Positions 10,960 to 31,350 of a stretch of 64,000 bases of DNA are shown here, in pieces. The translations under genes were made by a program, and so were the position numbers. Every line of letters begins with the position of its first letter. Position 1 is the first letter of the stretch. Under the pieces are notes generated by a model. The model saw nothing but the letters and a program-made list of their open reading frames with translations. It did no database searches and was not told the DNA's origin. Source of the stretch: an uncultured Bacteroidota bacterium (lineage in GTDB: Bacteria > Bacteroidota > Ignavibacteria > UBA10030 > UBA6906); the NCBI GenBank assembly GCA_963700635.1, contig CAVOYH010000003.1:608001-672000 (forward strand), read 5' to 3'.

Positions 10960-11910
10960 ATGCGTGAATTGGTGACAACACGGTCAAACCCGATGATCGA
11001 TCCTGCTCTGCATATCTGGGGATGGGAGATCTCCGTGTATCTGTTCCTCGGCGGATTGGTCGCAGGCATGATGATCATCTCGGGATATTTTCTTTTCAAG
11101 GGGCGTCAGAAGGAGATGACCTGCTCTTGTCTGACACTCCCCATGCTGAGTGTCGCCCTGCTGAGTCTGGGCATGCTGGCGCTCTTTCTCGACCTCGCAC
11201 ACCGCTGGTACTTCTGGAGAATGTACATGACGTTTCAACCGGCATCGCCGATGTCATGGGGTTCCTGGATTCTGCTTCTTGTGTATCCCGCTCTCCTGGC
11301 AAATGCTCTGATACGTCCGCCCGCATGGATCGCAACACGTATACCCTGGATCACAACACTCTCAAAACGCGTGCAGGCGCGCAGCGCAACGGTGAAGTTT
11401 ATCGGCATCATGAACATGCTGTTGGGGGGATTACTCGGTGTGTATACGGGAGTTCTCCTAAGTGCCTTCGGGGCCAGGCCGCTCTGGAACAGCTCCATTC
11501 TTGGCCTTCTCTTTCTCACATCCGGCCTCTCCTCCGCCGCAGCATTTGTTCACATCATCGCTTCGGACCCGTATGAGCGGAAACTTCTTGCCAAAGCAGA
11601 CAATGGTTTTCTGACATTGGAACTTGTTATCATCGTGATGTTTCTGATCGGTCTCGTCAGCAGTACCCGGGCGCACCTGGAAGCCGCGCTTCTCCTGCTC
11701 TCGGGTCCGTACGCCCCGATCTTCTGGGTCTTCGTGGTTGGCTTGGGCATCATCATCCCCCTCGTCATCCAGTCCCTGGCAGTTAACCACAAGATCGCCC
11801 ACACGCCGGTCGCCCCGCTCTTTGTTGTGCTCGGAGGATTGATACTCCGCTTTGTCATTGTCCAGGCCGGCCAGGTCAGTCACTGGACACGTACCGTTCT
11901 CACGAATTAA
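10960..11910 (+). CDS. psrC: NrfD/PsrC-family quinol-interacting membrane anchor
   Basis: WGWEISVYLFLGGLVAG, LFLDL, SPMSWGSWIL, YTGVLL...RPLW, GGLILRFVIV. Confidence 0.88.
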   Translation: MRELVTTRSNPMIDPALHIWGWEISVYLFLGGLVAGMMIISGYFLFKGRQKEMTCSCLTLPMLSVALLSLGMLALFLDLAHRWYFWRMYMTFQPASPMSWGSWILLLVYPALLANALIRPPAWIATRIPWITTLSKRVQARSATVKFIGIMNMLLGGLLGVYTGVLLSAFGARPLWNSSILGLLFLTSGLSSAAAFVHIIASDPYERKLLAKADNGFLTLELVIIVMFLIGLVSSTRAHLEAALLLLSGPYAPIFWVFVVGLGIIIPLVIQSLAVNHKIAHTPVAPLFVVLGGLILRFVIVQAGQVSHWTRTVLTN

Positions 11911-16525: not shown

Positions 16526-16963
16526 ATGGCATCCAAACAGGCGATTGTTAAACAGCTTGACGGCGTCACCTTCATGGCAAAGGGGGATTCCGGTCATTGG
16601 GTCTCCATGGACGGCCCCGAAGATTTCGGTGGGAGCAACGCCGCCTCCCGCCCCAAAGAACTTGTCCTCTTCGCCCTCGGGGGATGCACCGGAAGTGATG
16701 TGGCTGCCATCCTGAAGAAGAAAAGAGCCTCGCTTCAGGACTTTGAAATGATTATCAAGGGGACCCAGGCAGAAGAGCACCCGCAGGTCTTTACCGAGAT
16801 CCACATCGAATACGTATTTTATGGCACAGGCATCATCCCTGCCGATGTCGAGCGGGCGATCGAACTCTCCACGACAAAATACTGTGCTGTCTCCGCGATG
16901 CTTCGCGCAAGTGTCAAGCTCACACATTCATATCGCATTGAGCCACCAAAGGGTGTCGTATAA
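16526..16963 (+). CDS. OsmC/YhfA family protein
   Basis: RPKELVLFALGGCTGSDV...ERAIELSTTKYCAVS, both Cys present. Confidence 0.88.
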   Translation: MASKQAIVKQLDGVTFMAKGDSGHWVSMDGPEDFGGSNAASRPKELVLFALGGCTGSDVAAILKKKRASLQDFEMIIKGTQAEEHPQVFTEIHIEYVFYGTGIIPADVERAIELSTTKYCAVSAMLRASVKLTHSYRIEPPKGVV

Positions 16964-17021
16964 GCGGACAACGGCGACGGCGTACCATGGCCGGCGCAAA
17001 GCATTTTTCTATCCTTACGGA

Positions 17022-17594
17022 ATGCCCATGCACAAATTTAATCCTGATAATGCCCTCCGGCTCGAGCGTCCCGAACGGTATCAGTTACTTCCTCCGCAGG
17101 AGACTCTCCATCGTTTTGGCGTTCGTAACGGGATGACGGTGGTTGACATTGGGGCCGGAACGGGATTCTTCGCCCGGGCGGCGGCAGAACTCACCGGACC
17201 AGCCGGGCGGGTGTATGCCGTGGACATGTCGCCGGAGATGATCGCGTATCTCAAGGCCAGCGCCATTCCGGCACACCTGAATACGGTCCTTTCCGAGGAG
17301 TATACGATTCCGCTCCCGGATGGAACGGCGGATCTGACAGTACTGGCTTTTGTTGTGCATGAAACGCCAGATATTCTGCGATTTCTGGATGAAGCCCGCA
17401 GGATCACGCGGGCCGATGGGCACATGGTGATTCTGGATTGGAAAATGCAGGAAGAAGAGCATGGCCCTCCTGCGGACGAGCGCCTTGATGAGCAGGTGCT
17501 GCTGCAGACACTCTCTCCCCGCTTTGGAATAAAGGAACATGGCTCTTTGAACGCTTCACACTATTATGTTGTTGTACAGTTCTTAAGGCCATGA
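17022..17594 (+). CDS. Class I SAM-dependent methyltransferase
   Basis: VVDIGAGTGFF, VYAVDMSPEM, ILDW, HGPP; start 17022 or 17028. Confidence 0.85.
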   Translation: MPMHKFNPDNALRLERPERYQLLPPQETLHRFGVRNGMTVVDIGAGTGFFARAAAELTGPAGRVYAVDMSPEMIAYLKASAIPAHLNTVLSEEYTIPLPDGTADLTVLAFVVHETPDILRFLDEARRITRADGHMVILDWKMQEEEHGPPADERLDEQVLLQTLSPRFGIKEHGSLNASHYYVVVQFLRP

Positions 17595-18001
17595 CTATGC
17601 GCGTACTCGTTCTGGCTGTCCTCGGCATTCTCACGATAGGTACTGTTTTGATCATGCAAGATGATTCATCTGAGACCATTACCCCGGCCGAAGTACACGC
17701 CCTCATGGAGAGCGACTCTGCGTATCTCCTGCTGGACGTCAGGACTGGAGAGGAATTCGACGGCCCATCCGGACACCTGCGCGGAGCTATTTTGATTCCT
17801 GTGCAGCATCTCAAGGAACGGCTGTCAGAACTCACCCCTCACACACACAAGACGATCATCGCGATCTGCCGGTCCGGAAACCGGAGCGGATACGCGACAA
17901 GTTTCTTGCGTGACAGAGGCTTTCGCACCCTCAACATGGTCGGCGGGATGGTGAGGTGGAATAATGAAAAACGGCCCACCGTCCAGACGGAACATCCATG
18001 A
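17591..18001 (+). CDS. Rhodanese-domain sulfurtransferase, N-terminally anchored or exported
   Basis: LLDVRT...GHLRGAILIP, active loop CRSGNRS, GGMVRW. Confidence 0.88.
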   Translation: MTMRVLVLAVLGILTIGTVLIMQDDSSETITPAEVHALMESDSAYLLLDVRTGEEFDGPSGHLRGAILIPVQHLKERLSELTPHTHKTIIAICRSGNRSGYATSFLRDRGFRTLNMVGGMVRWNNEKRPTVQTEHP

Positions 18002-18390
18002 CCACAACCCAACTTGTCCTGTATGCCGCTCTGATTTTTATTATTCTCGTCTATCTCCGCAGGTTTTTTCTTACGCGGTCCATCAAAAGATATTCCGCTG
18101 TACAGCTTGCCGACCGGATGAGGGAGGGGGGGGTTGTGCTGCTTGATGTACGCACAGCGCCAGAACTCCGCTCGGGTACCCTCAAGGGAGCCGTGCATAT
18201 TCCGGCCCACGAACTCAAACGCCGGGCCGATGAACTGAAGAAGTATACCGACAGGGAAGTTGTCTGTTATTGTAAAACCGGACGCCGGAGCCTGCTCGCT
18301 GCCGCACGATTAACGCAACAGGGATTCCGGGCTTCCCATCTGGAAGGTGGCATCATCGAGTGGAACTTTTCACAGCGACAGAAAGGATAA
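17998..18390 (+). CDS. Rhodanese-domain sulfurtransferase with N-terminal TM helix
   Basis: LLDVRT...GAVHIP, active loop CKTGRRS, LEGGIIEW. Confidence 0.88.
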   Translation: MTTTQLVLYAALIFIILVYLRRFFLTRSIKRYSAVQLADRMREGGVVLLDVRTAPELRSGTLKGAVHIPAHELKRRADELKKYTDREVVCYCKTGRRSLLAAARLTQQGFRASHLEGGIIEWNFSQRQKG

Positions 18391-18802: not shown

Positions 18803-20029
18803 TCAGAAGAAATAGAATGCGGCACAAAGAACACGGTTGTTCGCGGCAAGCGTAGCGTTTTCCACTTTCCCCTTGTTTTGACCGTTTGGCGTACCGTATC
18901 GGGCTGCAGTATGTTCGTATTCCGCTGCAAAACGCACCTTGCCCGTGTTCCAGACTATCCGCGGTGCAATACGGATTATGTTGTCGATATCGTTCCCCCG
19001 TCCGTAAGATGTTCCGGTGAGATTTTCATTCGCTCCCATATTTTTCGAGTATCCGGCAAATAGTGCAAGCTCCACATCCTTGCCCGCCGAAATCTCCCCC
19101 CAGCACGACCAGCTCTTTAGCCCTGAATACTGCTCAATTCCAGTCACCGTGTCGGCTGTTTTGACACCATAGCCACCGATCATGAGAAGATCGGAAAGAT
19201 TTTCTCCATAGGTTCCTTCCGCTTTCACGGTCACCGGACCCAGAACGACCTTCGCGTATCCCAGAAAGGCCGTGCTGTGGATGGCAGCGTCAGTAGCGAT
19301 ATTCTTCGCCGTAACCAGACGGGGAACCAGCCTTTTCCAGTCGGCCCCGAAGCCGAGCAAGGTACCGTCACTCGAATATTGTAATTGCGCATGAAGATTT
19401 GGCACCACCGCGTTGCGGAGGTACGAGGAACTCAGCCCGGCCGGTCCGCTGCTCTGAAAATCCCGCTGTGACATTGCCGCGAGAATGAGCTTCACCCTAT
19501 CGAAGGAATGGGAAAACCGGATTTGCGGATTTCTTGAAAACGCCTGAAAGGGCACGCCGGTATTAAAGGACACAACACCGGGATACATCTCCACCACAAA
19601 CATGGGGTGCCAGAATTGCCCGATAAGAAGGGACGAGCGGTCCCAGTCCAGTTTCACATACGCATGCCGGATCCGGAACCCGCTGGCATCGGCATCGGAC
19701 GTCCCGAAGAACTCTCCTTCGATCAATCCTGACGTCTTTGCACCAAGGGCATCCGGCCCCGTAATCCTGCCGAGGAGTCTGGTCTGAAGAGAGAGGATAT
19801 TAAAGTTTGCCTTCTTATTGATGTCTTCTCCGAATTTATCGCGTACCACCGGTGACGGATAAAGCAAGAAATGCCCCTCACGGGCAGCAACGGTCTGCCG
19901 GGAATCAAAGATACAATCGGTCTTTACGAATCCGGAAAAGGTGATGCCGAATGTGGCCTGTTCCTGCTGGGCAGAAGCGACAACGGCAAGAAAACAGATA
20001 CACGCCAGCGCAAGAAATCGTACACTCAT
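18803..20029 (-). CDS. Outer-membrane beta-barrel porin (DcaP-like)
   Basis: Signal peptide MSVRFLALACICFLAVVASA; FSGFVKTD, IEGEFFG, FRIRHAYVKL, LLIGQFW, RNPQIRF; terminal YFF; SD GAGG before ATG 20029. Confidence 0.72.
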   Translation of the reverse strand: MSVRFLALACICFLAVVASAQQEQATFGITFSGFVKTDCIFDSRQTVAAREGHFLLYPSPVVRDKFGEDINKKANFNILSLQTRLLGRITGPDALGAKTSGLIEGEFFGTSDADASGFRIRHAYVKLDWDRSSLLIGQFWHPMFVVEMYPGVVSFNTGVPFQAFSRNPQIRFSHSFDRVKLILAAMSQRDFQSSGPAGLSSSYLRNAVVPNLHAQLQYSSDGTLLGFGADWKRLVPRLVTAKNIATDAAIHSTAFLGYAKVVLGPVTVKAEGTYGENLSDLLMIGGYGVKTADTVTGIEQYSGLKSWSCWGEISAGKDVELALFAGYSKNMGANENLTGTSYGRGNDIDNIIRIAPRIVWNTGKVRFAAEYEHTAARYGTPNGQNKGKVENATLAANNRVLCAAFYFF

Positions 20030-20081
20030 GAATTCCTCTCGAGCGTTAGTCATAAAGATTTGTGTCCACACCGCAGCGGGG

Positions 20082-21629
20082 TTATTCTGCCCCGATGCCA
20101 AGATACGTTCGGAGTTTTTCCTCTTCAAACTTTGCTGCAGCCTCCGGCTCTTTGCTCATGATCGAAACAAGGTAGCCGACAAGGAATGCCGCGGGCATGG
20201 AAAAGAGAGCCGGGTTCTTTAACGGGAAGATCGCGGCGCTGTTGTGAAGGAGATCTACCCAGACCGTCGGACTGAGGACGATGAGCGTCACAGCCAATCC
20301 GGTGCCTGTAAGCACGCTGGCGACCGCCCCTTTCGTGGTGAATCCCTGCCACAAAATGGAGAGGAGAAGGGCGGGAAACGTAGCGCTTGCCGCGATGGCA
20401 AAGGCCAGACCGACCATAAAAGCAACATTCTGCCCCTTGAATATGAGTCCGAGCACGATTGCAAGAATGCCCAGGAAGAGGGTGGATGCTTTCGCCACGC
20501 GGATTTCACCGGCCTCATCGGCTTTCCCGCGCTTGACGACATTGACGTACAGGTCGTGCGAAAGTGTGGAAGCTCCGGAAAGCGTCAGGCCCGCCACAAC
20601 CGCCAGAATGGTGGCAAATGCGACCGCTGCAATAAAGCCGAGGAAAAACTGGCCGCCCACCGATTCGGCGAGCAGCAACGCTGCCATGTTTCCACCTTTG
20701 TCGAAACTGCTCACCACCTCCTGGCTCACAAGAACCATTGCACCGAATCCGATAAAGAAGGTAAGAATGTAGAAGTAACCGATGAACCCTGTTGCTATAA
20801 AAACAGATTTCCTCGCCTGTTTTGCGTCTGGCACGGTGAAAAAACGCATGAGGATGTGTGGCAGCCCTGCGGTCCCCAACATCAACGCAAGACCAAGGGA
20901 CAGAGCATCCCAGGGATTGGTCACAAAACCACCCGGTGACAGAACCTTGTCGGAATACATGACGGCTGCTTTTTCAAACAGCAGTAACGGGTTCATGCTA
21001 AAATGTGAGAGCGTCATGATAACCAGCAGCGTGGCTCCGCCGAGAAGTAACACGGCTTTGATGATCTGAACCCAGGTCGTCGCGAGCATGCCGCCGAAGA
21101 GTACGTAGGCGATCATGACGCACCCGACAATGATGACAGCCGCTTCATACGGCAGACCGAACAGCGTGGTGATAAGAGAGCCGGCGCCCACCATCTGGGC
21201 AATAAGATAGAATACGATCGTCATCAACGAACCAATCGAAGACCCGATGCGCACAGGCCGCTGTTTCAGGCGGAAGGCCACTACGTCGGCAAACGTAAAT
21301 TTGCCCAGATTCCTGAGCGGTTCAGCAATGAGAAACATCACCAGGGGCCATCCGACAAGAAATCCAATGGAATAGATGAGACCGTCGTATCCTTTCAGGG
21401 CGACCATACCGGCAATCCCCAGGAACGATGCCGCGCTCATGTAATCACCCGCGAGCGCGAGTCCGTTTTGCAGGCCGGAAATACTCCTGTCGGCCGCATA
21501 AAATTCTGATGTGGTCTTCGTCCGCTTGGCAGCCCAATACGTTATCGCCAGTGTAATCATGACGAAAACGAAGAAGATGATAATGGAAGCGGTATTCACC
21601 TGACCGAGTGTTGACTGAAAAGTATCCAA
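20082..21629 (-). CDS. actP: Cation/acetate symporter (SSS family)
   Basis: [62 protein letters not shown]. Start probably TTG 21629 after AGGAGG (ORF extends to 21665). Confidence 0.93.
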
Positions 21630-21668
21630 AGCAAGTTCCTCCTGGTTCCGAAGAGTGGTGAGCACGGC

Positions 21669-21983
21669 CTATTGATGAAGTACCTTGTTGCGTAGTTCTC
21701 TCACTTTCGCGTCGTATGAACGATTCGCCCATCGTGTATAGTAACCGGTCAAGAGCCAGGCAAACAGGATAAGGCTTATGCCGATGGGAAGACCGAGGGT
21801 CAGGTATTCACTGATCTTATAGGACAGAAATTCTGGGAAGAATGCGATGGTGAGGATAAAACCGAAATATACCACCAGCATGACCACCGTCAGGACAGAA
21901 GATACCATAATTCTCTGCCTGACAAGACTCCTGAATTCATCCGAGTTGAGGATCTCCCGGATTTTCGATGCCTGTACGCTCAT
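21669..21983 (-). CDS. DUF485 (YjcH-like) small membrane partner of ActP
   Basis: EFRSLVRQR, two TMs, YTRWANRSYD; directly upstream of actP; SD GAGGAG. Confidence 0.88.
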   Translation of the reverse strand: MSVQASKIREILNSDEFRSLVRQRIMVSSVLTVVMLVVYFGFILTIAFFPEFLSYKISEYLTLGLPIGISLILFAWLLTGYYTRWANRSYDAKVRELRNKVLHQ

Positions 21984-22134
21984 GGTGAATGCTCCTCTTC
22001 TGTTTTGCCGGTTTGGACGTACGTCTGTCACGTTTTTGATGTTCGGTTCGTGCTCGAGGAATATGCCTGAGAACTGATAGAGCCAGAGGTCGGGGAGGTC
22101 ACCCGATATGGGGCGGAGGACTCGCTGGTCTCGC

Positions 22135-22163
22135 AGTATAGGGATTTTTTCTTGAAAACCCAA
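22135..22163 (-). promoter_or_regulatory. Putative sigma70 promoter of DUF485-actP-porin
   Basis: Minus strand TTGGGT-17 nt-TATACT; implies a ~145 nt 5' UTR. Confidence 0.4.
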
Positions 22164-22268
22164 CACCGTGTGGAAATGTGCCGGTAAGCACGGTGTGGAG
22201 GGGGCGTCCGGGCAAGGTATCAGGCCGATCGGCTCTCGGGAGACAGGACATCCGTAAAACTGTGCGTA

Positions 22269-25163
22269 TTACCTGGCCACACCCTTGAACCCAAGACTGA
22301 TAGCAGCCTTGAAGCTGTCGATTTGCCCCACCCCCCTTTTGAGCATCATGAGGTCTGACTCCGTACACTCAGCTGGATCGATCTCATTGTTTGGAGAAAG
22401 GTTTTCTGATATCAGCTTCGCCTGATGCCGGAACCGTATGCGCATCAGAAAGGAATAGAGCTCCGCGATGTCCTGATACGTCCTTCGTGAAAACACGTTC
22501 GCCTCGTAGAGGAGCGCAAGTCGGTCCAGTGTATTGGTGCCTGCCACCTGATGTTTCAGGGCATGGAGCCTTGCGCCATCGACAATGGGCATGATAACTT
22601 TCTTGATGTCAAACGGTCCCTTCAGCTTCTGGATACCATCCGGCAACTCCCATTTGATCACACTGTCGGACAGATAGAGAAAGAACGGATCATTTCCCGT
22701 TAGCACTTTTTTTACGTGAGTCTGAAGGGATTGTACGATTTCCTCGTTGCCATGGAGAAGACGGAAATCGAAGAAGGTTTTTGCATCGAGCAGATCCTGC
22801 GGGCTTGCGTTCGTCACCCAATCCGTAAAATACGTTTTCCATACGGCAAGTGGTTGACACCATTTCACGTTCTTCGCCATGATGCCACCCTTGCAAAAAT
22901 GATAGCCCACGGTATCGAGCGCCGCGCAGACTTCTTCTCCCAGGCGCAGGAAATATGCCTGTGACTTTTCCCGAAGGTCGGGAGATGGGTCTTGATATAC
23001 AATCGCATTGTCCTGATCAGTAAGGAGTGTTTGTTCCTTCCTTCCATCACTCCCGAGCGCGATAAAGGCGAACGGAACAGGTGGTTCCCCAAGATCGTCC
23101 ATAGCCAGGACAATGATACGATGGGTGAGTGCCTGAGAGATCAGCGTGGTCACCCGCGTAACGTCGGCGACGTGCGCTCCCCTCGCGATAAGAGTCTGTA
23201 CCAGGAACTGGAGTCTGGAATGATACTCTTTTAATTCACGGGCCGTAGAAAGAGATTCAATCCTCTGGAGGAAGTAGAGATACGAGGTATACAGTGCGTG
23301 CTGAATATCCCGTGCATGGACAATGCCGGCGGGTGTACCGTCGGTACGGTTGACCACAACGTGGGAAACATGTTTTTCAGCAAATAGCTGGAGGACATCG
23401 AACACTGTCGAGGAAGAAGGTACTCCCAAAAGCGGGGAGGTCATCACGGTGTGGACTGGATTATCAAGACCAACCTGAGGCGCCAGGACACGCTCCCGGA
23501 TGTCACATTCGGTCACAATCCCAATTGCCGACAATCCGGTTGTGGTGACGAGAATGGCATCCCGTTGTCGGCGTGTCATAAGCTGAACAGCATCCCCGAT
23601 TGTGGCCTGCATATCGCACGATGGATAGGATTCGGCAAAGGGCTGTACCGGTTGATGGAGCAGGAGGATGGAAATCTGAAGATCTGAAAGCAGGTTCTCG
23701 CGTTCGGTTTCTGAGCGCTTCTGCTCGGTGATGTCTTCCAGGACCCCGTCACACGCCAGAGGTTTTCCCTGTTTGTCCCGGATCAGAATGGCGGAAAGGG
23801 AGATGATGGCTTTTGCTCCCGTGAGACGGCGTACGGCGGTGATCCAGTTCCTGACGATTCCGGCTTCAAAAAGAGTCTCAAAGAATCTCCTTCCCTCGTG
23901 CACATCATCGAACAGCTCGAGCAGCGAATAGGTGAGGAGCATGTTCTTATCGGAGGCGCCAAGAATGTTTCCGGCGGCCGGATTCACTTCGAGAAATCTG
24001 GCCTCCTTTGTGGGCGCGGTGCGGAATACGCCGATAGAGAGCTGATTGGTCAGCGTTCGATACTGCTCCTGGCTGCTGTCAAGGGCGTCTTCGATTTGTT
24101 TGTGGCGGCTGATATCCTTGACACTCAGCACAATACCTTCCTTTTGTAGCAAGGTGATCGGCGAAATGCTGATGACGACATCCAGAACACCCCCGCTCAT
24201 CGTCCGGAGTTTTGCCTCCACCTGCTCCAGCGCTGCCTCTTGTCCGGCTACGGGTCGAAATGTTTCAAAATCAAAGATGTTCGCATGGGGGACCGAAATG
24301 AACAGATCGCGGAACGGCACTTCGCCGGAAAAGCCCTCAGCATAACCGATCATGGCATACAAAGCCTTGTTACAGAAGACTTCCTGATCCGCCATGACCA
24401 TGATCAAGCCCTCCGTCGAGGTTTCCACAAGCGCGCGGTATTTTTCTCTTGATGTATGCAGTTCCTGTTCAGCACGCTGCCGCTGGTTTTCTGCCCGGAG
24501 GTTTTGCCATGCAATGTACAGGAGCAGGATTGCAATAATGATGGAGATACCGATGGACATGTGAACCGTCTGTCGCTCCAACGCAGCGATTTCGGATTTG
24601 ACGTCTTCAATGTAGATCCCCGTTCCGACAATCCACTTCCAGGGTGTAAACCCTTTTACAAAGGACAGCTTGGGAACGATGCGTGTTGAGTCGTCCTTCC
24701 ACTGCCACGTGTAATCGACGTACCCCTCTCCGGCATTTTCCACCGCTGCCACCATCTCCACAAACATCCGGTTTCCGTATGAGTCGTCATACTCTTTCAG
24801 ACTCTTTCCGTTCAGATCAGGACGATAGGGATGCATGATCATGACCGGATCATGGTCGGTTATCCAGAAATAGTCTTTACCTTCCTTGCCGTATCTGAGC
24901 AGTTTTATCTGGTTCACCGCCGATTGCTGTGCCTGGTCCCGTGAAATCAATCCCCTCGTCTCCCGATCATGCCATTGCTCCAGGATGCTCCAGGCAGAAT
25001 TCGTCAGCTCCCGGATCATTTCGCGCTTTCGTCCATAGATGATCTCTTCGAACTGTGGTATCAGGACGAGAAACAGAGCGGTGATGAAAAGGCCGATTGT
25101 AAGGAGTGTGGGAAGGAGGGTCCTGACGATGAATCGTGTTCGATATCCGCCGGAAGTTTTCAT
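22269..25163 (-). CDS. Membrane sensor nucleotidyltransferase: TM-sCache_2-TM-PAS-PAS-CBS pair-DUF294 NTase-DUF294_C
   Basis: Cache_2 RYG..DYFWITD..MIMHP..GYVDYTW..KLSFV..WIVGTGIY; two PAS folds ending KDIS and EDITEQK; CBS GIVTECDI and VMTSPL; NTase LGSDGRKEQTLLTDQDNAI; FFDFR; FDIKK. Start 25163 (alternatives 25196, 25217). Confidence 0.85.
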   Translation of the reverse strand: MKTSGGYRTRFIVRTLLPTLLTIGLFITALFLVLIPQFEEIIYGRKREMIRELTNSAWSILEQWHDRETRGLISRDQAQQSAVNQIKLLRYGKEGKDYFWITDHDPVMIMHPYRPDLNGKSLKEYDDSYGNRMFVEMVAAVENAGEGYVDYTWQWKDDSTRIVPKLSFVKGFTPWKWIVGTGIYIEDVKSEIAALERQTVHMSIGISIIIAILLLYIAWQNLRAENQRQRAEQELHTSREKYRALVETSTEGLIMVMADQEVFCNKALYAMIGYAEGFSGEVPFRDLFISVPHANIFDFETFRPVAGQEAALEQVEAKLRTMSGGVLDVVISISPITLLQKEGIVLSVKDISRHKQIEDALDSSQEQYRTLTNQLSIGVFRTAPTKEARFLEVNPAAGNILGASDKNMLLTYSLLELFDDVHEGRRFFETLFEAGIVRNWITAVRRLTGAKAIISLSAILIRDKQGKPLACDGVLEDITEQKRSETERENLLSDLQISILLLHQPVQPFAESYPSCDMQATIGDAVQLMTRRQRDAILVTTTGLSAIGIVTECDIRERVLAPQVGLDNPVHTVMTSPLLGVPSSSTVFDVLQLFAEKHVSHVVVNRTDGTPAGIVHARDIQHALYTSYLYFLQRIESLSTARELKEYHSRLQFLVQTLIARGAHVADVTRVTTLISQALTHRIIVLAMDDLGEPPVPFAFIALGSDGRKEQTLLTDQDNAIVYQDPSPDLREKSQAYFLRLGEEVCAALDTVGYHFCKGGIMAKNVKWCQPLAVWKTYFTDWVTNASPQDLLDAKTFFDFRLLHGNEEIVQSLQTHVKKVLTGNDPFFLYLSDSVIKWELPDGIQKLKGPFDIKKVIMPIVDGARLHALKHQVAGTNTLDRLALLYEANVFSRRTYQDIAELYSFLMRIRFRHQAKLISENLSPNNEIDPAECTESDLMMLKRGVGQIDSFKAAISLGFKGVAR

Positions 25164-25220
25164 GCGTAACTTTCCCGTGGAAAAGGGAGGAGCCATGATG
25201 TGACCGTTACGAAACACAGG

Positions 25221-25991
25221 TCACTGAAGGGCACGGCGTGCTTCATGTAAGGGCACCACCGTGATGTGTCGTTTCTCAGTATCCAGTATCATACAACCGT
25301 TTGCACGTGACGTGCGTGCAACACAGGGGGCAACGATCCATTGGGGACCTTCGAACAGCTGTACTGTTCCAAACGGATGCAGAGTCATTGTATCTTCATT
25401 GACAATCAAACACCCCTCGGGATGCCCGTGCCCGGAAATTCCCAGGTCACAGCCCTGCTCACGGACGAATTGGAAATGTTTTTTCAGATGAAAAGCCTGA
25501 CTGGGAAAGAAGATCGCAGATCCGGATAGGTCGGGATAACAGAAGTGTGAAACGAGGCAGGAGAATCCATCAACCCGCAGACACTCCGTTTCCTCCAGGC
25601 CCTGGAGATACTCCAGCGAGGCCGGACTCAGCGCTGGAGGCAGTTCGTTGTCTTCATAGAGCCAGATTCGATTACGGGCCCTCTTTTCGCGGATCGTATA
25701 CGCAAGATCGTACCAGTTGGCACCGTATTCAAATCCAGCATTAAACCGGGGCACCCTTCGGATTGCGTACAGGTCGTGATTCCCCGCAACGGCAACACTA
25801 CACCGGCTGCGAATCTGGGCTATACATCCTTCCGCATCCCGGGCTCGAATGTATTGATAGAAAGGAAGGGCAAATCCGACGATGTCGCCAAGACAGACGA
25901 TCTTCTCACACTGGTATTGGGCCAGAACCTCCAGAGCGAGATTGAGGCTCACAATGTCTTCGTGTATATCCGCCAGAAACCCTACGATCAT
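25221..25991 (-). CDS. Calcineurin-like metallophosphoesterase
   Basis: ADIHED, CLGDIVG, GNHD, SH, GHGH metal-binding motifs. Confidence 0.85.
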   Translation of the reverse strand: MIVGFLADIHEDIVSLNLALEVLAQYQCEKIVCLGDIVGFALPFYQYIRARDAEGCIAQIRSRCSVAVAGNHDLYAIRRVPRFNAGFEYGANWYDLAYTIREKRARNRIWLYEDNELPPALSPASLEYLQGLEETECLRVDGFSCLVSHFCYPDLSGSAIFFPSQAFHLKKHFQFVREQGCDLGISGHGHPEGCLIVNEDTMTLHPFGTVQLFEGPQWIVAPCVARTSRANGCMILDTEKRHITVVPLHEARRALQ

Positions 25992-26090: not shown

Positions 26091-27281
26091 TCAAAACGGG
26101 CTTCGGACACTTCTTGCCTTCCTCGTAACCTTCGGCGTAAACTCCTTACCCGCGTCCCTCCGCAAGCCAAAGTAGTGCTGGATGGCCCGGACGGTCCGTT
26201 CCGACGCACGGCCATCACCGTACGGATTAACAGCGGTTGCCATCCGTTCGTACGCCGCCTGGTCGTCCAGCAACCGCCGCGCATTAGTATAAATCTTCTC
26301 TTGATCCACACCGACCAGTTTTACGGTGCCAGAGCGGACGGCTTCAGGGCGTTCAGTCTTGTCGCGAAGAACAAGAACCGGTATCCCCAGGGAGGGCCCC
26401 TCTTCCTGGACTCCACCTGAATCACTGATGAGCAGATACGCACGTGCCATCACATGCACAAAATCCATATAGTCAAGCGGCTCCATTAACACAACATTGG
26501 GCACGTTCTTGAGAACCGGCATAACCGCTTCCCGTACCATGGGGTTTTTGTGGACCGGGAAGAGAACAAGGGTATCGGGTGATTCCCGGGCAATCCGCCG
26601 CAGCGCCAGGGCAGCACCCTGCATGGGCTCACCCCAATTCTCCCGCCGGTGCATGGTCACCAGAATGATACGACGCTCGTCGGACGCTGCACGCCGCAAC
26701 GCAGAGGTGCTGAAAGTATGTTTCTTTCTCACAGCGAGGTGTAACGCATCAATCACGGAGTTTCCTGTGATCCGAATGGACGACGCAGGGACATGTTCAC
26801 GCAGGAGTGCTTGCCGCGCAGTTGCGGTGGGTGCAAAATGCAGGTCGGCGATCACACTCGTGAGCCTCCTGTTCATTTCTTCCGGAAACGGCTGGCTCTT
26901 GTCGTGTGTGCGTAAGCCGGCCTCCACGTGACCGACCGGGATGTGCCGGAAAAAGGCCGCCAGACTCCCGACAAACGTCGTGAGTGTGTCACCCTGGACC
27001 AGCACCATCTCGGGCCGTTCCTCGACCATGATACGATCCAGCGTTTCAATGGCGTTGCGCGTAATTTGCGCAAGTGTCTGCCGCGGTCGCATGATGTTCA
27101 GGTCGTGGTCCGGCGTAATCCGGAACACATCCAGCACCTGATCCAGCATGTGCCGGTGTTGCGCCGTTGCTATCGTGACCACGCGGCACCACGTGCGCTC
27201 TTCTCGCAAGCGGAGGATGATAGGAGCAAGCTTGATTGTATCCGGCCGGGTTCCAAAGATCACAGCGATGGTTTTTTTCAT
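26091..27281 (-). CDS. wecB: UDP-N-acetylglucosamine 2-epimerase (non-hydrolysing)
   Basis: GTRPDTIK, VQGDT, HVEAGLRT, PFPEEMNR, HRRENWG, DSGGVQEE, TERPEA, NPYGDG. Confidence 0.92.
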   Translation of the reverse strand: MKKTIAVIFGTRPDTIKLAPIILRLREERTWCRVVTIATAQHRHMLDQVLDVFRITPDHDLNIMRPRQTLAQITRNAIETLDRIMVEERPEMVLVQGDTLTTFVGSLAAFFRHIPVGHVEAGLRTHDKSQPFPEEMNRRLTSVIADLHFAPTATARQALLREHVPASSIRITGNSVIDALHLAVRKKHTFSTSALRRAASDERRIILVTMHRRENWGEPMQGAALALRRIARESPDTLVLFPVHKNPMVREAVMPVLKNVPNVVLMEPLDYMDFVHVMARAYLLISDSGGVQEEGPSLGIPVLVLRDKTERPEAVRSGTVKLVGVDQEKIYTNARRLLDDQAAYERMATAVNPYGDGRASERTVRAIQHYFGLRRDAGKEFTPKVTRKARSVRSPF

Positions 27282-27564
27282 CGGCTTTCGTGAGATGATG
27301 GCCACGAGTAAAGAAGATCACCCTTGTGTTGTCGGAAAATGTCACGCCGTAAAAATACGGAAGATACAGGAGAAATGCGCAGGAATGTACAACGAGTGGT
27401 ATTGTGGCTCACTGCGGGCAACGAGCAAAGACGCCCTGATTGCAGCAGTGATCCCGCAAAACTGTCTGCAACCACGGCGTCTTCGTGGCCGATCTTTGTT
27501 TTGTCTCGCCCCTCCACGGCCTGCATTTCTGGTTCAAGCGTCCGTTACAGGGTGGAAGGGTCGG

Positions 27565-28737
27565 TCAGAACGCGCTAACGAAGCCAACCGTGAATTTGTT
27601 CGCCTTGGCTTTCATGTCGTGCGTGAACTCACCAACAAGCCTGAAGTTCCGGGCGAGAAGGTATCCGACATGACCGGTTATGGTCTGATAGTCCAGGCCG
27701 GGAGCCTCGGAATCCACCCAGTTGTACAGGGCCGCTCCATACCAGCGCCCCTTATCGCCACCCGGCGTCACCGTCAGTTCCCCAAAAGCACCGCGTGTTT
27801 TTATCCGGTTTCCGGCGGACAGATAGAAGGGGTTATCGTCGCGTCGTTCCATGTATTGCACGTTCAGTTCGACAGATTCTACTGAGACGGTGAAGTCCGG
27901 TCCGGCCATCCAGAGTGAATTTGTTCTGTCGCCGTCAGCTTCACGGCCCCAATACCCAAACACCCCGAGACGGAAATGTTCGCCGAGATCCTGTGAAAGC
28001 CGCAATGCGGTGTTCTTGTATTTGTCGTTGTCAAAATTTCGCGCCGCATCTGCTGAACCGATGCCCGAGCCGTTCAGCACTTCCACTATGATGTCTGTAC
28101 CCGTGGGGAAACCATACGTGAGCATGATCCCGCGGTCGTATGTGAGATTTGCGGAGGATCTTCCAGGTTTCACTCGGTAGATCTGGTAATCCTCCAGCGT
28201 CAGGCGTAATTCCCGTTTGAACAGGGGGTCTGACACCTGAAACTGCCCCAGGTAGACGTCCAGTTCACTCTTGAAGAGATTGTTGAACATGACGAATGCG
28301 TCCTCGAGCCCGGCCACCTCGCCCCGTTCACCAAAAAAGAAATAGAAATAGTACGACACATCCTTGGCGATCTGGCCGCCCGAAAGCAGTTTCACCAGGT
28401 ACGGCCATTGTATGTCTGTCCGTCCCACCGATCCCGGTTGCCAGCGCGCATATCCCTCAAGGCGGACTGCAAACGGCAGTTCACGCAACAGCATGAGTTG
28501 ATCATCTCCGGTTTCGCGGTATTCCCGCGGCGCATCTTTGTCAGCCAGAACAAAACCGTTCCCGGCAAATTCGTCGCCGTACGGTTTGAGTTTCGGAGCA
28601 GGAAGATGGCAGGTGTTGCATGACATGTTGTATTTCCGGGCAAATGCGGGAATTGCACATGCGTCCGAAACGCTGAGGGCAAGAAAGCCCGCGGCCAGAA
28701 CCACTGACCCAAGATATCTGCTCATTGTTGTACTCAT
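27565..28737 (-). CDS. Cyc2-like fused monoheme cytochrome c / outer-membrane porin
   Basis: Signal peptide, then IPAFARKYNMSCNTCHLPAPKLKPYGDEFAGNGF; rest made of amphipathic beta strands; terminal Phe. Confidence 0.75.
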   Translation of the reverse strand: MSTTMSRYLGSVVLAAGFLALSVSDACAIPAFARKYNMSCNTCHLPAPKLKPYGDEFAGNGFVLADKDAPREYRETGDDQLMLLRELPFAVRLEGYARWQPGSVGRTDIQWPYLVKLLSGGQIAKDVSYYFYFFFGERGEVAGLEDAFVMFNNLFKSELDVYLGQFQVSDPLFKRELRLTLEDYQIYRVKPGRSSANLTYDRGIMLTYGFPTGTDIIVEVLNGSGIGSADAARNFDNDKYKNTALRLSQDLGEHFRLGVFGYWGREADGDRTNSLWMAGPDFTVSVESVELNVQYMERRDDNPFYLSAGNRIKTRGAFGELTVTPGGDKGRWYGAALYNWVDSEAPGLDYQTITGHVGYLLARNFRLVGEFTHDMKAKANKFTVGFVSAF

Positions 28738-30083
28738 GGCAATATGGTCACCTGTGTGGAATGGGTATTAACTTCAATGATCTCCGCTTCTTCCATGGGA
28801 ACACCGAGGAATTCTGCGACCGGGGCGGGAAGTTTCTGATAGTTCACGGTCGCCTTCACCGCCAGCGGCCCCGGTGCGCATTGTATCGGGACCGTCCAGG
28901 TAAAGGTCTCGAGTTTTGTTTCGCGCGGGCCAATCCGGTAATCGGTGGACTGAGACGCAGTATTCCATTGCATGATGGTCATGCGGCCCTGGGGATCAAG
29001 ATACGGAAGGCGGAAGATCCTGTCTCCCAAAGGGATACCGTCGCGCTGGATCCCCTTGAAGTCGGGAATGTCCAGCGGAATGCCCATGTCCTGATAGGCA
29101 AGAGTATTTGCAGCGATTGTGTATTCCTCTCCGGCAAATCCCTTCTTGTCAACCGGCAAGTGATAGACCGTTCCTTTTGCATCCACCGCTTCCACATGCA
29201 ACCACACCATCCGCTCTTCGGCGGAACCGGAGGGGAATTTGTGGCCGGTCTTCTGATTAAAGAGCGCAACGGTAAACTTCATCCGTTCGCCCGGCTCGAG
29301 CTCACGAATATCCGGATGAATCCGGACCTCGATGGTGCCCCGTACTTTGCCGGGATCATGAGCGCCATGAAACAGATGCTGCCATGCATCAGTGACCGTC
29401 TCGCCCATTTCAGCCAGCTTTCCCTGAGCCTTTGTCATGTGACAGTCATGGCACCGCACACCCTCCTTGGCATACGGTCCTTCTTTCCATTCAAGGTGCG
29501 TGGACTTCACCCACACTCCATACGGGCTTTTTTCATTGTGGCAGGTTCCACAAAACTCGGCCTTTGTAATAAACTCTGATTTTTGGGTTTCGTGTGATGG
29601 AGACTCCAGATTGCCCCTGCGTCCGTATTTAACGGCGCCGGGCTCGGAATAGTAGTTGAAGTTGAACGGGATGTCACCTGAAAAGCCCGTGATCGTGTGG
29701 CACACGTCGCACGAAACCGATTCGTTTGCCCGGCTATTCTCCTCCGGCTTCGGGGGCGGCACATCACCCGCAAGAAAAGCCATCGGGGAATGACAACCGT
29801 TACATCCGGCTTTCACCTCGGCAACCTTGGGATCTTTTTCTGCATGCGGTACGGCCAATTTGAAATACTCTATCTCATCCCAATGATGGGTGTAGGCCTG
29901 CGACATCATTGACTGGCTCCACTGCTGATAAAAATCCACGTGACACGATGCGCCACAGAACTCAGGCTTCTCAAACTGTTCATATTTTTTAGAACCCAGC
30001 GCTTCATCTCCAGCCTTTTTCTGCTGCGCGAAGCCGGCGGAACACAATGCCGAAACAATCAAGAACACCATGATCTTTCTCAT
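28734..30083 (-). CDS. Periplasmic multiheme (5 heme) c-type cytochrome
   Basis: Signal peptide MRKIMVFLIVSALCSAGFA; CGASCH (CX3CH), CNGCH, CDVCH, CGTCH, CHDCH; GHKFPSG. Confidence 0.85.
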   Translation of the reverse strand: MRKIMVFLIVSALCSAGFAQQKKAGDEALGSKKYEQFEKPEFCGASCHVDFYQQWSQSMMSQAYTHHWDEIEYFKLAVPHAEKDPKVAEVKAGCNGCHSPMAFLAGDVPPPKPEENSRANESVSCDVCHTITGFSGDIPFNFNYYSEPGAVKYGRRGNLESPSHETQKSEFITKAEFCGTCHNEKSPYGVWVKSTHLEWKEGPYAKEGVRCHDCHMTKAQGKLAEMGETVTDAWQHLFHGAHDPGKVRGTIEVRIHPDIRELEPGERMKFTVALFNQKTGHKFPSGSAEERMVWLHVEAVDAKGTVYHLPVDKKGFAGEEYTIAANTLAYQDMGIPLDIPDFKGIQRDGIPLGDRIFRLPYLDPQGRMTIMQWNTASQSTDYRIGPRETKLETFTWTVPIQCAPGPLAVKATVNYQKLPAPVAEFLGVPMEEAEIIEVNTHSTQVTILP

Positions 30084-30148
30084 TCGGGGTGGCCTCTCAT
30101 CAATAGGTGGTGGGATGCTTGATGGGAAAGGGTTAATGTAAAATATGA

Positions 30149-30165
30149 CACAAAGCAAGTGCCAG
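30149..30165 (-). promoter_or_regulatory. Possible sigma54 promoter (variant -12) of the cytochrome operon
   Basis: Minus strand CTGGCACTTGCTTTGTG: strong -24 element, GG-N10-GT instead of GC. Confidence 0.35.
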
Positions 30166-30459
30166 AGCGAAACGGCAAATTCACTAAAAAAAGCCCATGA
30201 TCTGTCCGCCAGATCCGGCAGGATTCGCAAACTTGAGAATATTCGTGCGGCTGAGGCCCGTGCGAAGGAGATTGCGGTTGTAGGAAACCAGGAGTGTGAA
30301 TGAGAGATTTTGCTGGATCGGGCCCGGAAGCCGGGCTCCATCATCTCCGAATCCGCAACGGAGTGCCGGTGATGGTCGGTGCGACCACGTGCGTGAACCG
30401 GAAGCACCTCCCGGGTCTTCCAGCCCCGCGGGTTATTCCGTCGGGGCGGAGAAACCGCG

Positions 30460-31350
30460 TTACTTTGTGTCCAGAATAATCGGGAGCCCGTCTTTCCCCG
30501 ATCCAACGATCACAACTTTTGTATTCGGTGAGCTGGAGAGTTTTTCGGTTGCTTCGATCCCTTTCCACCTCAACAGTTGTTCGCTGATCCCCGCGGCAAC
30601 AATTGTCTGGAAATCGGCAATACCTTTCGCTTCAATCCGCTTCCGGTCTGCTTCCTGACGTTCTTTTAACAGGATGAACTCCATCCGTTGGGCTTCCTGA
30701 TCCGCACGCTGTTTCTGTTCGATTGCTTCCGTCAGCTGTGACGGGAGTGATACATTCCGGAGGGGTGTGGCTTCGATGAGTACGCCCCGCACGGCCACGG
30801 TTCGGGCCAGTTCTTCCTGTATTGCCGATCCGAGGCGTTCACGTTCCGTGGAATAGAGAGCGCTGGCCTGGAAACTGGCCGTGACAGACCGACTGTGAGA
30901 CCGGAACTGCGGAATTAGGACGATGGTCTCGTAATCACCGCCGGCAATTGTCTGATATACCCGCGCTGCCGAGTCGGGATTCAAGCGGTAGAGCACGCTG
31001 ATTTCCAGTCCGATGGTGAGCCCTTCACGCGAAAGCACCTGCATCGCTTCCTTGTGCTCCTGAGTTTGCGTCGTGAATTTGTGAACGCGGGCAAGCGGAT
31101 TCACCAAATTGATGCCGGGCGGTAATGTCCTTTCCGACACGATCCCGAAAACGTCAACTACCCCAACGTGTCCGGCCGGAACCTGCGTAAAGATCTGTGA
31201 GATTGCCAGCAGGCTGAAGACGACGAGCCCGAGCAATGACATGCTGACGAGAGAACGGAAGGACGGATTGTTTTCCTTCACCTTACGTGCAGCGCCGCGC
31301 CACGCGAAAAGCGCAACGATGACAACCAGAATACTCAGAATAAACAGCAT
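30460..31350 (-). CDS. SPFH/prohibitin (band 7) family membrane protein
   Basis: VPAGHVGVV, LSREGL, AIEQKQRADQEA, RIEAKGIADFQ, GKDGLPIIL. Confidence 0.9.
   Translation of the reverse strand: MLFILSILVVIVALFAWRGAARKVKENNPSFRSLVSMSLLGLVVFSLLAISQIFTQVPAGHVGVVDVFGIVSERTLPPGINLVNPLARVHKFTTQTQEHKEAMQVLSREGLTIGLEISVLYRLNPDSAARVYQTIAGGDYETIVLIPQFRSHSRSVTASFQASALYSTERERLGSAIQEELARTVAVRGVLIEATPLRNVSLPSQLTEAIEQKQRADQEAQRMEFILLKERQEADRKRIEAKGIADFQTIVAAGISEQLLRWKGIEATEKLSSSPNTKVVIVGSGKDGLPIILDTK

Follow-up and report, generated by a model that had tools for sequence, protein, structure and literature searches.

Five consecutive, co-oriented genes occupy positions 18803-25991 on the minus strand of a 64,000-nt stretch of DNA (the window) from an uncultured bacterium of the Bacteroidota; coordinates below are positions in this window unless another locus or contig is named. 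According to the open reading frame (ORF) list and Pfam/NCBIfam matches they encode, in this order, a metallophosphoesterase (MPE), a membrane protein with a Cache input domain and a DUF294 nucleotidyltransferase (NTase) output (the sensor), a DUF485 protein, an ActP-type symporter and a porin (Table 1). An earlier note on this DNA, made from the letters alone, had described this arrangement and proposed it as a new signalling system controlling acetate uptake, and each item that it observed is confirmed by coordinates, strand and family matches. The same five-gene order is found in 10 Ignavibacteriota-labelled assemblies and in the related genome G025, and the arrangement therefore exceeds chance; the feature is real and conserved.

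Table 1. The five genes of the cassette and their parts, with positions in the window.
Feature	Position	Strand	Description
Metallophosphoesterase (MPE)	25221-25991	-	256 aa, cytoplasmic; Pfam Metallophos and Metallophos_2
Receptor nucleotidyltransferase (sensor)	22269-25163	-	964 aa; TM1, sCache_2, TM2, PAS, PAS, CBS pair, DUF294, DUF294_C
Transmembrane helix 1 (TM1)	25059-25115	-	hydrophobic helix before sCache_2
Periplasmic sCache_2 with predicted C2/C3-carboxylate pocket	24576-25031	-	PDB matches and PscD residues
Transmembrane helix 2 (TM2)	24510-24566	-	hydrophobic helix after sCache_2
Two cytoplasmic PAS domains	23724-24452	-	TIGR00229, PAS_8/PAS_9
CBS pair	23283-23630	-	Pfam CBS, two stretches; PDB CBS proteins match the same stretch
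DUF294 nucleotidyltransferase and DUF294_C helical domain	22293-23216	-	Pfam
NTase catalytic motif GSDGRKEQTLLTDQDN	23007-23054	-	within DUF294, intact
Sensor-DUF485 spacer	21984-22268	-	285 nt, possible separate promoter
DUF485 (YjcH-like) small membrane subunit	21669-21983	-	104 aa; Pfam 98 bits
Probable ActP-type cation/acetate symporter (SSS family)	20082-21665	-	527 aa; SSF 352 bits
Probable DcaP-like outer-membrane porin	18803-20029	-	408 aa; signal peptide, C-terminal YFF

The sensor ORF extends from 22269 to 25217, and the domain positions obtained from Pfam/NCBIfam are given in its numbering; a database twin (P0002) begins at ORF residue M19, which gives the shorter gene of Table 1. 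The sCache_2 domain (PF17200, 133.5 bits) covers residues 63-214, the two PAS domains cover 256-379 and 384-498 and the CBS pair about 530-645, while the output is formed by DUF294 (PF03445, residues 668-807, 157.9 bits with a cut-off of 21) and DUF294_C (PF10335, residues 866-975, 90.7 bits with a cut-off of 22.5). On either side of the Cache domain lies a hydrophobic helix (residues 17-35 and 200-218 of the 964-aa protein); together with a basic N-terminus, this places the Cache domain in the periplasm and the remainder in the cytoplasm. No HisKA/HATPase, GGDEF or MCP domain was found in the sensor by Pfam/NCBIfam. The domain order, the intact motif GSDGRKEQTLLTDQDN and the lack of a kinase, GGDEF or MCP output are thus as the earlier note had read them, and its claim of a carboxylate-type Cache domain is also supported, as described below.

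The best solved relatives of the Cache domain are Adeh_3718 (4K08, E value 4.6e-35) and PscD (5G4Y/5G4Z, E value 7.6e-33), and the closest structures, 4K08 and 5G4Y, are acetate- and propionate-bound sensors. The Cache region also matches the model of MctS (91.9 bits), a Cache-type kinase which controls monocarboxylate uptake. Contacts of PscD with propionate are reported for Y90, W92, H103, F126, Y143, W145 and K156, seven residues said to be identical across three binders of C2/C3 carboxylates (PMC5062169). Identical residues are present at all seven positions in the sensor (Y98, W100, H111, F134, Y151, W153 and K165 in 964-aa numbering), and these columns are invariant in a 24-sequence alignment reaching down to 41% identity. 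A C2/C3 carboxylate is therefore strongly predicted as the ligand of the sensor. The sCache_2 chemoreceptors PscD, McpP (PP_2861) and Adeh_3718 have the Cache fold and the seven contact residues in common with the sensor but signal via an MCP domain, in whose place the sensor carries a nucleotidyltransferase. Sensory control of acetate or monocarboxylate uptake genes, as proposed here for the cassette, is also the task of CrbS/CrbR (MxtR/ErdR) and MctS; these, however, are two-component kinases acting via transcription, whereas the cassette contains neither a kinase nor a DNA-binding partner.

The output module looks like a catalytically competent NTase of the GlnD/GlnE type. Its G, S, R, E and D-Q-D residues are invariant in 56 output modules, as are several basic residues of the helical domain. 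No solved structure in the PDB matches the DUF294 part by sequence or profile. When the DUF294 module was compared by HHalign with GlnD N-termini (350 residues, 13 genomes of the same order), the profiles matched with 89.9% probability (E value 1.7e-6, 242 columns) and colinearly across both the NTase and the helical domain. In addition, the GlnD of the window's own genome (G000) weakly matches the DUF294 model, and Anantharaman et al. are reported to have grouped DUF294_C with the C-terminal domains of GlnD and GlnE. The true GlnD of this genome carries GlnD_UR_UTase, HD and ACT domains. No match to any of these, nor to the GlnE double module, was found in the sensor, which is therefore neither GlnD nor GlnE. 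What GlnD and GlnE have in common with the sensor is a Pol-beta NTase followed by a helical substrate-binding domain. In GlnD, the HD domain acts as a phosphohydrolase which removes the nucleotidyl mark, and by analogy the same logic, in which a sensor domain governs a nucleotidyl mark and a phosphohydrolase takes it away, may apply to the cassette. The hydrolase is part of the same protein in GlnD but a separate gene in the cassette, and the input is glutamine in the former and, as predicted, an extracellular carboxylate in the latter.

The MPE encoded next to the sensor appears, from its conservation and distribution, to be its dedicated partner. It matches Metallophos_2 with 34.5 bits (cut-off 27) and a second Pfam metallophosphoesterase model, also over the cut-off, with 30.2 bits; no transmembrane helix was found in it. 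Its motif residues (D8, H10, D36, N71, H72, H149, H188 and H190) are all there, and none of them varies across 30 sequences. MPE subfamilies found beside sensors are mutually only about 15% identical yet keep every catalytic residue, and the metal ligands are invariant across three of them. The subfamily of the window is small: at E ≤1e-30, 1.84 billion representatives yielded 164 clusters of it. In a set of 41 genomes from the same genus, family and order (G000 included), a full-length sensor is present only in G000 and G025, and full-length matches to the MPE subfamily (365 and 363 bits) only in the same two, the next best match being partial (74 bits); since these kin are not independent, the co-occurrence is a pattern and not a statistic. 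Five genomes that have a sensor without an adjacent MPE gave no full-length member of the subfamily, their best match reaching 62 bits over 76 positions. One 468-aa database fragment (P0244) reads in frame from the MPE into TM1-sCache_2-TM2-PAS, which is either a natural fusion or, the contig being short, the result of a missing stop codon; a search for longer fused forms gave none at E 1e-20, which is weak evidence. A complex prediction for the cytoplasmic module of the sensor with the MPE gave a median of 0.34, with one control at 0.41, and is not used as evidence either way.

The fusion of Cache and DUF294 is widespread and unnamed. A search with the output region gave 2075 proteins at E ≤0.001 among 5140 candidates, and 116 of the best 120 carry both sCache_2 and DUF294 and are about 965 aa long; their source labels are only 'cache domain-containing', 'PAS domain S-box' or 'DUF294 ... 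domain-containing'. At least 588 relatives, forms without Cache included, were confirmed in a scan of species-representative genomes. The best 80 of these consist almost entirely of full-length fusions, and their assemblies carry the labels Ignavibacteriota, Bacteroidota, Chlorobiota, Thermodesulfobacteriota, Myxococcota, Acidobacteriota, Planctomycetota, Lentisphaerota and others. In the literature, no paper was found joining sCache_2 or 'Cache domain' with a nucleotidyltransferase. In G025 the five genes keep their order between different flanks, which marks the cassette as a self-contained unit of patchy distribution. At one locus (L010:10001-13080) the sensor frame appears interrupted, the ORF stopping at 11881 while DUF294 coding continues, which is a frameshift or an assembly error.

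Conservation of the neighbours was assessed at 80 fusion loci from other species, 45 of which have at least 5 kb on both sides (full-flank loci), using representatives of every neighbour type as tblastn queries. At 60 of the 80 loci a gene for a phosphoesterase stands no more than 400 nt from the sensor, and it is of the type MPE (25 loci), PHP (12), MPE_b (7), GAF-HD_5 (7), MPE_c (6), MPE_d (2) or RNase T-like (1), the last being the sole neighbour of its kind among the fusion loci (L032). An SSS or SatP carboxylate transporter is present within 7 kb at 57 loci, small transporter subunits (DUF485, divergent DUF485 or DUF4212) at 50 and a porin near the sensor at 22. Of the full-flank loci, the phosphoesterase is present at 36, the transporter at 39 and the two together at 33. 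The linkage of fusion, phosphoesterase and carboxylate transporter, whose absence elsewhere would have refuted the proposal by the earlier note's own standard, is thus conserved in other genomes. The window's own genome gave 19 matches corresponding to 18 SSS genes in 4.2 Mb, from which we estimate that a transporter would be this close by chance in under about 10% of cases. Several of the SSS genes of G000 are arranged as tandem pairs, their open frames measuring about 590-690 aa. The flanking DNA, 1.17 Mb in total, holds 62 phosphoesterase genes of these types; all but one (61) are no further than 400 nt from the sensor and the last is 450 nt away. The sensor-adjacent zone makes up 14% of this DNA; the check is partly circular because the queries were drawn from adjacent genes.

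The type of phosphoesterase follows the phylogeny of the sensor. In a FastTree tree of 68 sensors (SH-like support, midpoint root, many rows of biased composition), the PHP, MPE_b and GAF-HD partners are each confined to one well-supported clade, whereas MPE needs five changes and the state without a partner seven. The PHP partner occupies one whole clade of 12 sensors: at L029 (9146-9937) a stand-alone PHP-domain protein of about 260 aa takes the place of the MPE upstream of the sensor, and homologues lie directly upstream at L017, L019, L021, L035, L036, L038, L049, L063, L064, L072 and L074. In the sensor clade without a recognised phosphoesterase, the constant neighbour is an AP_endonuc_2/xylose-isomerase-like TIM-barrel gene downstream of the sensor on the opposite strand (L013, L014, L015, L076 and L078). 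It was considered as a further type of hydrolase and not counted, members of this family being mostly sugar isomerases. Across the DUF294 systems, the soluble ones described below included, the constant core is an NTase, an adjoining phosphodiester hydrolase and a carboxylate transporter; the input (none, cNMP-CBS, PAS-CBS or Cache-PAS-PAS-CBS) and the fold of the hydrolase vary. Since non-homologous enzymes of the same chemistry replace each other beside one NTase, it seems plausible that the core function is to form a phosphodiester bond and cleave it again, and this swapping of hydrolases is the strongest evidence that we have for it.

A similar association is known for soluble proteins of the cNMP-CBS-DUF294 type (COG2905). 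DUF294 proteins of about 600-635 aa were inspected in seven of 63 plasmid and chromid records with a DUF294 match, chosen for diversity and not at random. A 3'-5' exonuclease gene lies within three genes in five of the seven, and in four a DUF4212/SSS or DUF485/ActP pair is directly upstream, preceded in one of them also by acs. At L094 (G005:C8, 6914-10542), a genome of the same genus (G005) has a minimal, sensor-less DUF294/DUF294_C protein of 390 aa between an SSS gene, apparently split over two frames, and a gene of the RNase T family on the opposite strand. The earlier note had given just this background, of soluble cNMP-CBS-DUF294 proteins beside SSS transporters and an exonuclease, and the seven records and G005 agree with it.

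In Pseudomonas, published work connects the DUF294 module with regulons for acetate and short-chain fatty acids (PMC5715377; 10.64898/2026.09.07.749794). Pflu5625 is reported to belong to the CrbS/R acetate regulon, its mutant having no phenotype; PA3232-PA3235 are reported to be induced along with actP; and COG2905 is reported as cofit with the DUF4212 transporter subunit, Price et al. having speculated that it is needed for expression of the symporter. The exonuclease PP_0353 and the NTase PP_0354 are described as the genes most dependent on MxtR/ErdR, deletion of either in P. alloputida as lowering growth on propionate, and the C2/C3 Cache chemoreceptor PP_2861 (McpP) as part of the same regulon (10.64898/2026.09.07.749794). 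Mutants of the soluble NTase/exonuclease pair are reported to grow more poorly on propionate or pyruvate.

The soluble examples with an RNase T-like exonuclease (PP_0354/PP_0353, Pflu5625 and the PA3232-PA3235 cluster) share with the sensor a CBS pair ahead of a DUF294/DUF294_C output and the pairing with a phosphodiester hydrolase. They stand beside DUF485-ActP or DUF4212-SSS, sometimes with acs, as the sensor stands beside DUF485-ActP, and they are linked to the use of acetate, propionate and pyruvate. In contrast, their input is a cNMP-binding domain, where the sensor has TM-sCache_2-TM-PAS-PAS and no cNMP_binding match; their hydrolase is a DEDDh/RNase T-type exonuclease in place of the MPE; and the cassette includes an outer-membrane porin. 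The comparison indicates that the cassette unites parts which are separate in Pseudomonas (a McpP-like Cache domain, a DUF294 NTase, a hydrolase and YjcH-ActP), in the case of the sensor partly within one polypeptide. The cassette is a membrane-bound, ligand-defined variant of the cNMP-CBS-DUF294 and exonuclease module of acetate regulons. To call it a new signalling system, as the earlier note proposed, is therefore too strong, since it varies the input and the partner of a known, uncharacterised COG2905/DUF294 module.

The analysis establishes how the domains are ordered, that pocket and catalytic residues are kept, that the output module is homologous to GlnD and that the linkage to phosphoesterases and carboxylate transporters is conserved. 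From this we infer a mechanism that we favour tentatively, giving it slightly less than an even chance. The cassette may be a carboxylate-gated NTase/phosphoesterase switch which places a reversible nucleoside monophosphate (NMP) mark on a protein that takes part either in the uptake or in the metabolism of carboxylates. The sensor would be a transmembrane receptor whose periplasmic sCache_2 domain binds acetate-like C2/C3 carboxylates, and the PAS-PAS-CBS stalk would relay this signal, possibly together with adenine-nucleotide status, to the NTase. The GlnD/GlnE-like NTase would then attach an NMP group to its target, the co-inherited phosphoesterase would remove it, and the reversible switch would tune uptake of carboxylates by the adjacent DcaP-like porin, DUF485 protein and ActP. 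The logic of GlnK and AmtB is offered as an analogy for such control. It is the homology to GlnD that leads us to prefer a mark on a protein over a nucleotide signal.

Several observations weigh against this proposal. An adjacent phosphoesterase was not detected at 20 of the 80 loci, nine of the full-flank ones included (L003, L016, L025, L033, L050, L076, L077, L078 and L081), and therefore the partner is either dispensable or escaped detection. A nearby transporter is lacking at six full-flank loci, and where it is present its proximity could mean co-regulation only. The CBS pair, to which a part in the relay is given, is the least conserved part of the sensor, with one invariant column in 56 sequences. 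The sensor is patchy among related genomes (two of 41), and its closest relative (L003:9959-12616, 65% identity, 885 aa), probably a truncated or displaced copy, has its start within the Cache domain and adjoins a gene for an ABC ATPase, with no MPE, DUF485 or ActP nearby. Homology to GlnD leaves the class of substrate unfixed, and in the literature to September 2026 we found no DUF294 protein with a demonstrated activity, substrate or product. Lastly, the same-direction phenotypes of the two P. alloputida deletions are not obviously what would be expected of a simple writer and its antagonistic eraser.

These phenotypes fit a pathway better than antagonism and thus suit the main rival reading, in which the NTase makes a diffusible nucleotide or short oligonucleotide signal, the phosphoesterase degrades it and a nucleotide-binding effector, for example a regulator of the CRP type, activates the transporter operon. 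Such an effector could be at hand: at L041, L046, L050, L051 and L055 a CRP-family gene (cNMP_binding and HTH_Crp_2) lies within 1.5 kb of the sensor, between the sensor/MPE_b pair and a divergent transporter operon, and is a candidate reader of a nucleotide signal. Moreover, the folds of all the partner types (RNase T-like DEDDh, MPE, PHP and GAF-HD_5) have members that cleave nucleotides, cyclic nucleotides or oligonucleotides. The HD partner has a GAF domain, adenylate/guanylate cyclase genes are found within 7 kb of the sensor at four loci, the soluble relatives have a cNMP-binding domain, and the reported speculation of Price et al. on symporter expression points the same way. We nevertheless consider this reading doubtful, for the module is closest to protein-modifying NTases of the GlnD/GlnE type, helical domain included, the cassette of the window is without a CRP-like or other obvious effector gene, and no such messenger is known. 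A cyclic product would also be unfit for a partner of the RNase T type, since these enzymes require a free 3' end.

The partnership with an RNase T-family exonuclease, classic for DUF294, and the membership of the NTase in the Pol-beta superfamily also bring to mind the CCA-adding enzyme with RNase T, a model for tailing and trimming. By this model the NTase and hydrolase might tail and trim the 3' end of RNA, and the transcripts for transporters or for metabolism would in this way be controlled in their stability or translation; the PHP and MPE families do include nucleases. This is improbable, however: no RNA-binding domain was found by Pfam/NCBIfam, Rfam gave no match in the window between 18000 and 27000 and no conserved element is present in the spacer, the helical domain is of the GlnD/KNTase type, and an enzyme anchored in the membrane would be an odd RNA tailer. 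We regard as equally improbable that there is no catalytic signalling at all, DUF294 being a nucleotide-binding regulatory or scaffold domain which gates ActP by contact and the MPE an unrelated housekeeping neighbour. The silence of the literature on DUF294 activity and the loci without a phosphoesterase would agree with this, but the invariant catalytic carboxylates and G-S motif in 56 sequences, the metal ligands kept across three MPE subfamilies, the strict co-occurrence of MPE subfamily and sensor among the 41 related genomes and the repeated recruitment of non-homologous phosphoesterases argue against it.

The real start of DUF485 is the ATG at 21983, preceded by a GAGGAG site, and that of the porin is at 20029. 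ActP is 80-85% identical to its cassette orthologues; it scores 745.6 bits with the subfamily model NF006903, just below the cut-off of 750, and 662.4 bits with the equivalog TIGR02711, the cut-off of which is 1099. DUF485 and DUF4212 proteins are reported to be necessary for their respective permeases, DUF485 for the ActP-like ones (10.1101/072470). The porin of the window is a secreted, beta-barrel-like protein with no match in Pfam, DcaP included, while one orthologue reaches 18.9 bits with DcaP, under the cut-off; a family profile of 23 orthologues matched a single PDB entry, the DcaP-like 6EUS (E value 9.3e-13), over about half of its length. The spacer between sensor and DUF485 is not conserved among related loci, where its length is 42-302 nt. 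In the window it contains a perfect 8-nt inverted repeat at 22163-22196 (ACACCGTG, 18 nt, CACGGTGT) upstream of a promoter-like TTTCAA...TATACT stretch; about 0.2 such repeats are expected by chance by our estimate, and its significance is at chance level only.

Around the cassette, an ArsM-like methyltransferase gene followed by two rhodanese-domain genes lies on the plus strand at 16821-18390, and the best NCBIfam neighbours of these genes include selenoprotein-type models, all under the cut-off. On the minus strand upstream of the cassette, 28734-30506 encodes a multihaem cytochrome of 590 aa with NapC/NirT, c554 and MtrC-like matches, adjoined by a 390-aa protein without a family match and by wecB (26091-27305). 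The only strong acetyl-CoA synthetase match of the genome (935.9 bits) is on another contig (G000:C5:95533-97362) and holds one in-frame TGA.

DUF294/COG2905 proteins are common, and in Pseudomonas they are reported to be among the genes most dependent on MxtR/ErdR (10.64898/2026.09.07.749794). The variant described here offers what the soluble forms lack, namely a ligand that can be predicted and costs little (acetate, propionate or pyruvate), a single-domain hydrolase of its own and a compact cassette with a process that it likely controls. As hydrolase swapping points to the synthesis and hydrolysis of a phosphodiester bond as the core, the function of the family becomes directly testable, and the cassette is more useful than surprising because it makes a long-unexplained family ligand-addressable. 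Should this core be borne out, the anaerobic bacteria of sediments and digesters would have, besides a transmembrane type of signalling output, a new layer of control over how they take up short-chain fatty acids. It might even be, unlikely as we hold this at present, that DUF294 with its interchangeable phosphoesterases (RNase T, MPE, PHP and HD) constitutes a distinct and widespread signalling chemistry, acting through a nucleotide or oligonucleotide messenger or through an NMP mark on a transporter subunit, with the Cache fusion as the first 'receptor nucleotidyltransferase'. If true, the receptor nucleotidyltransferase would stand as a class of transmembrane output beside kinases, cyclases and chemoreceptors, and acetate outside the cell would be coupled directly to nucleotide transfer inside it.

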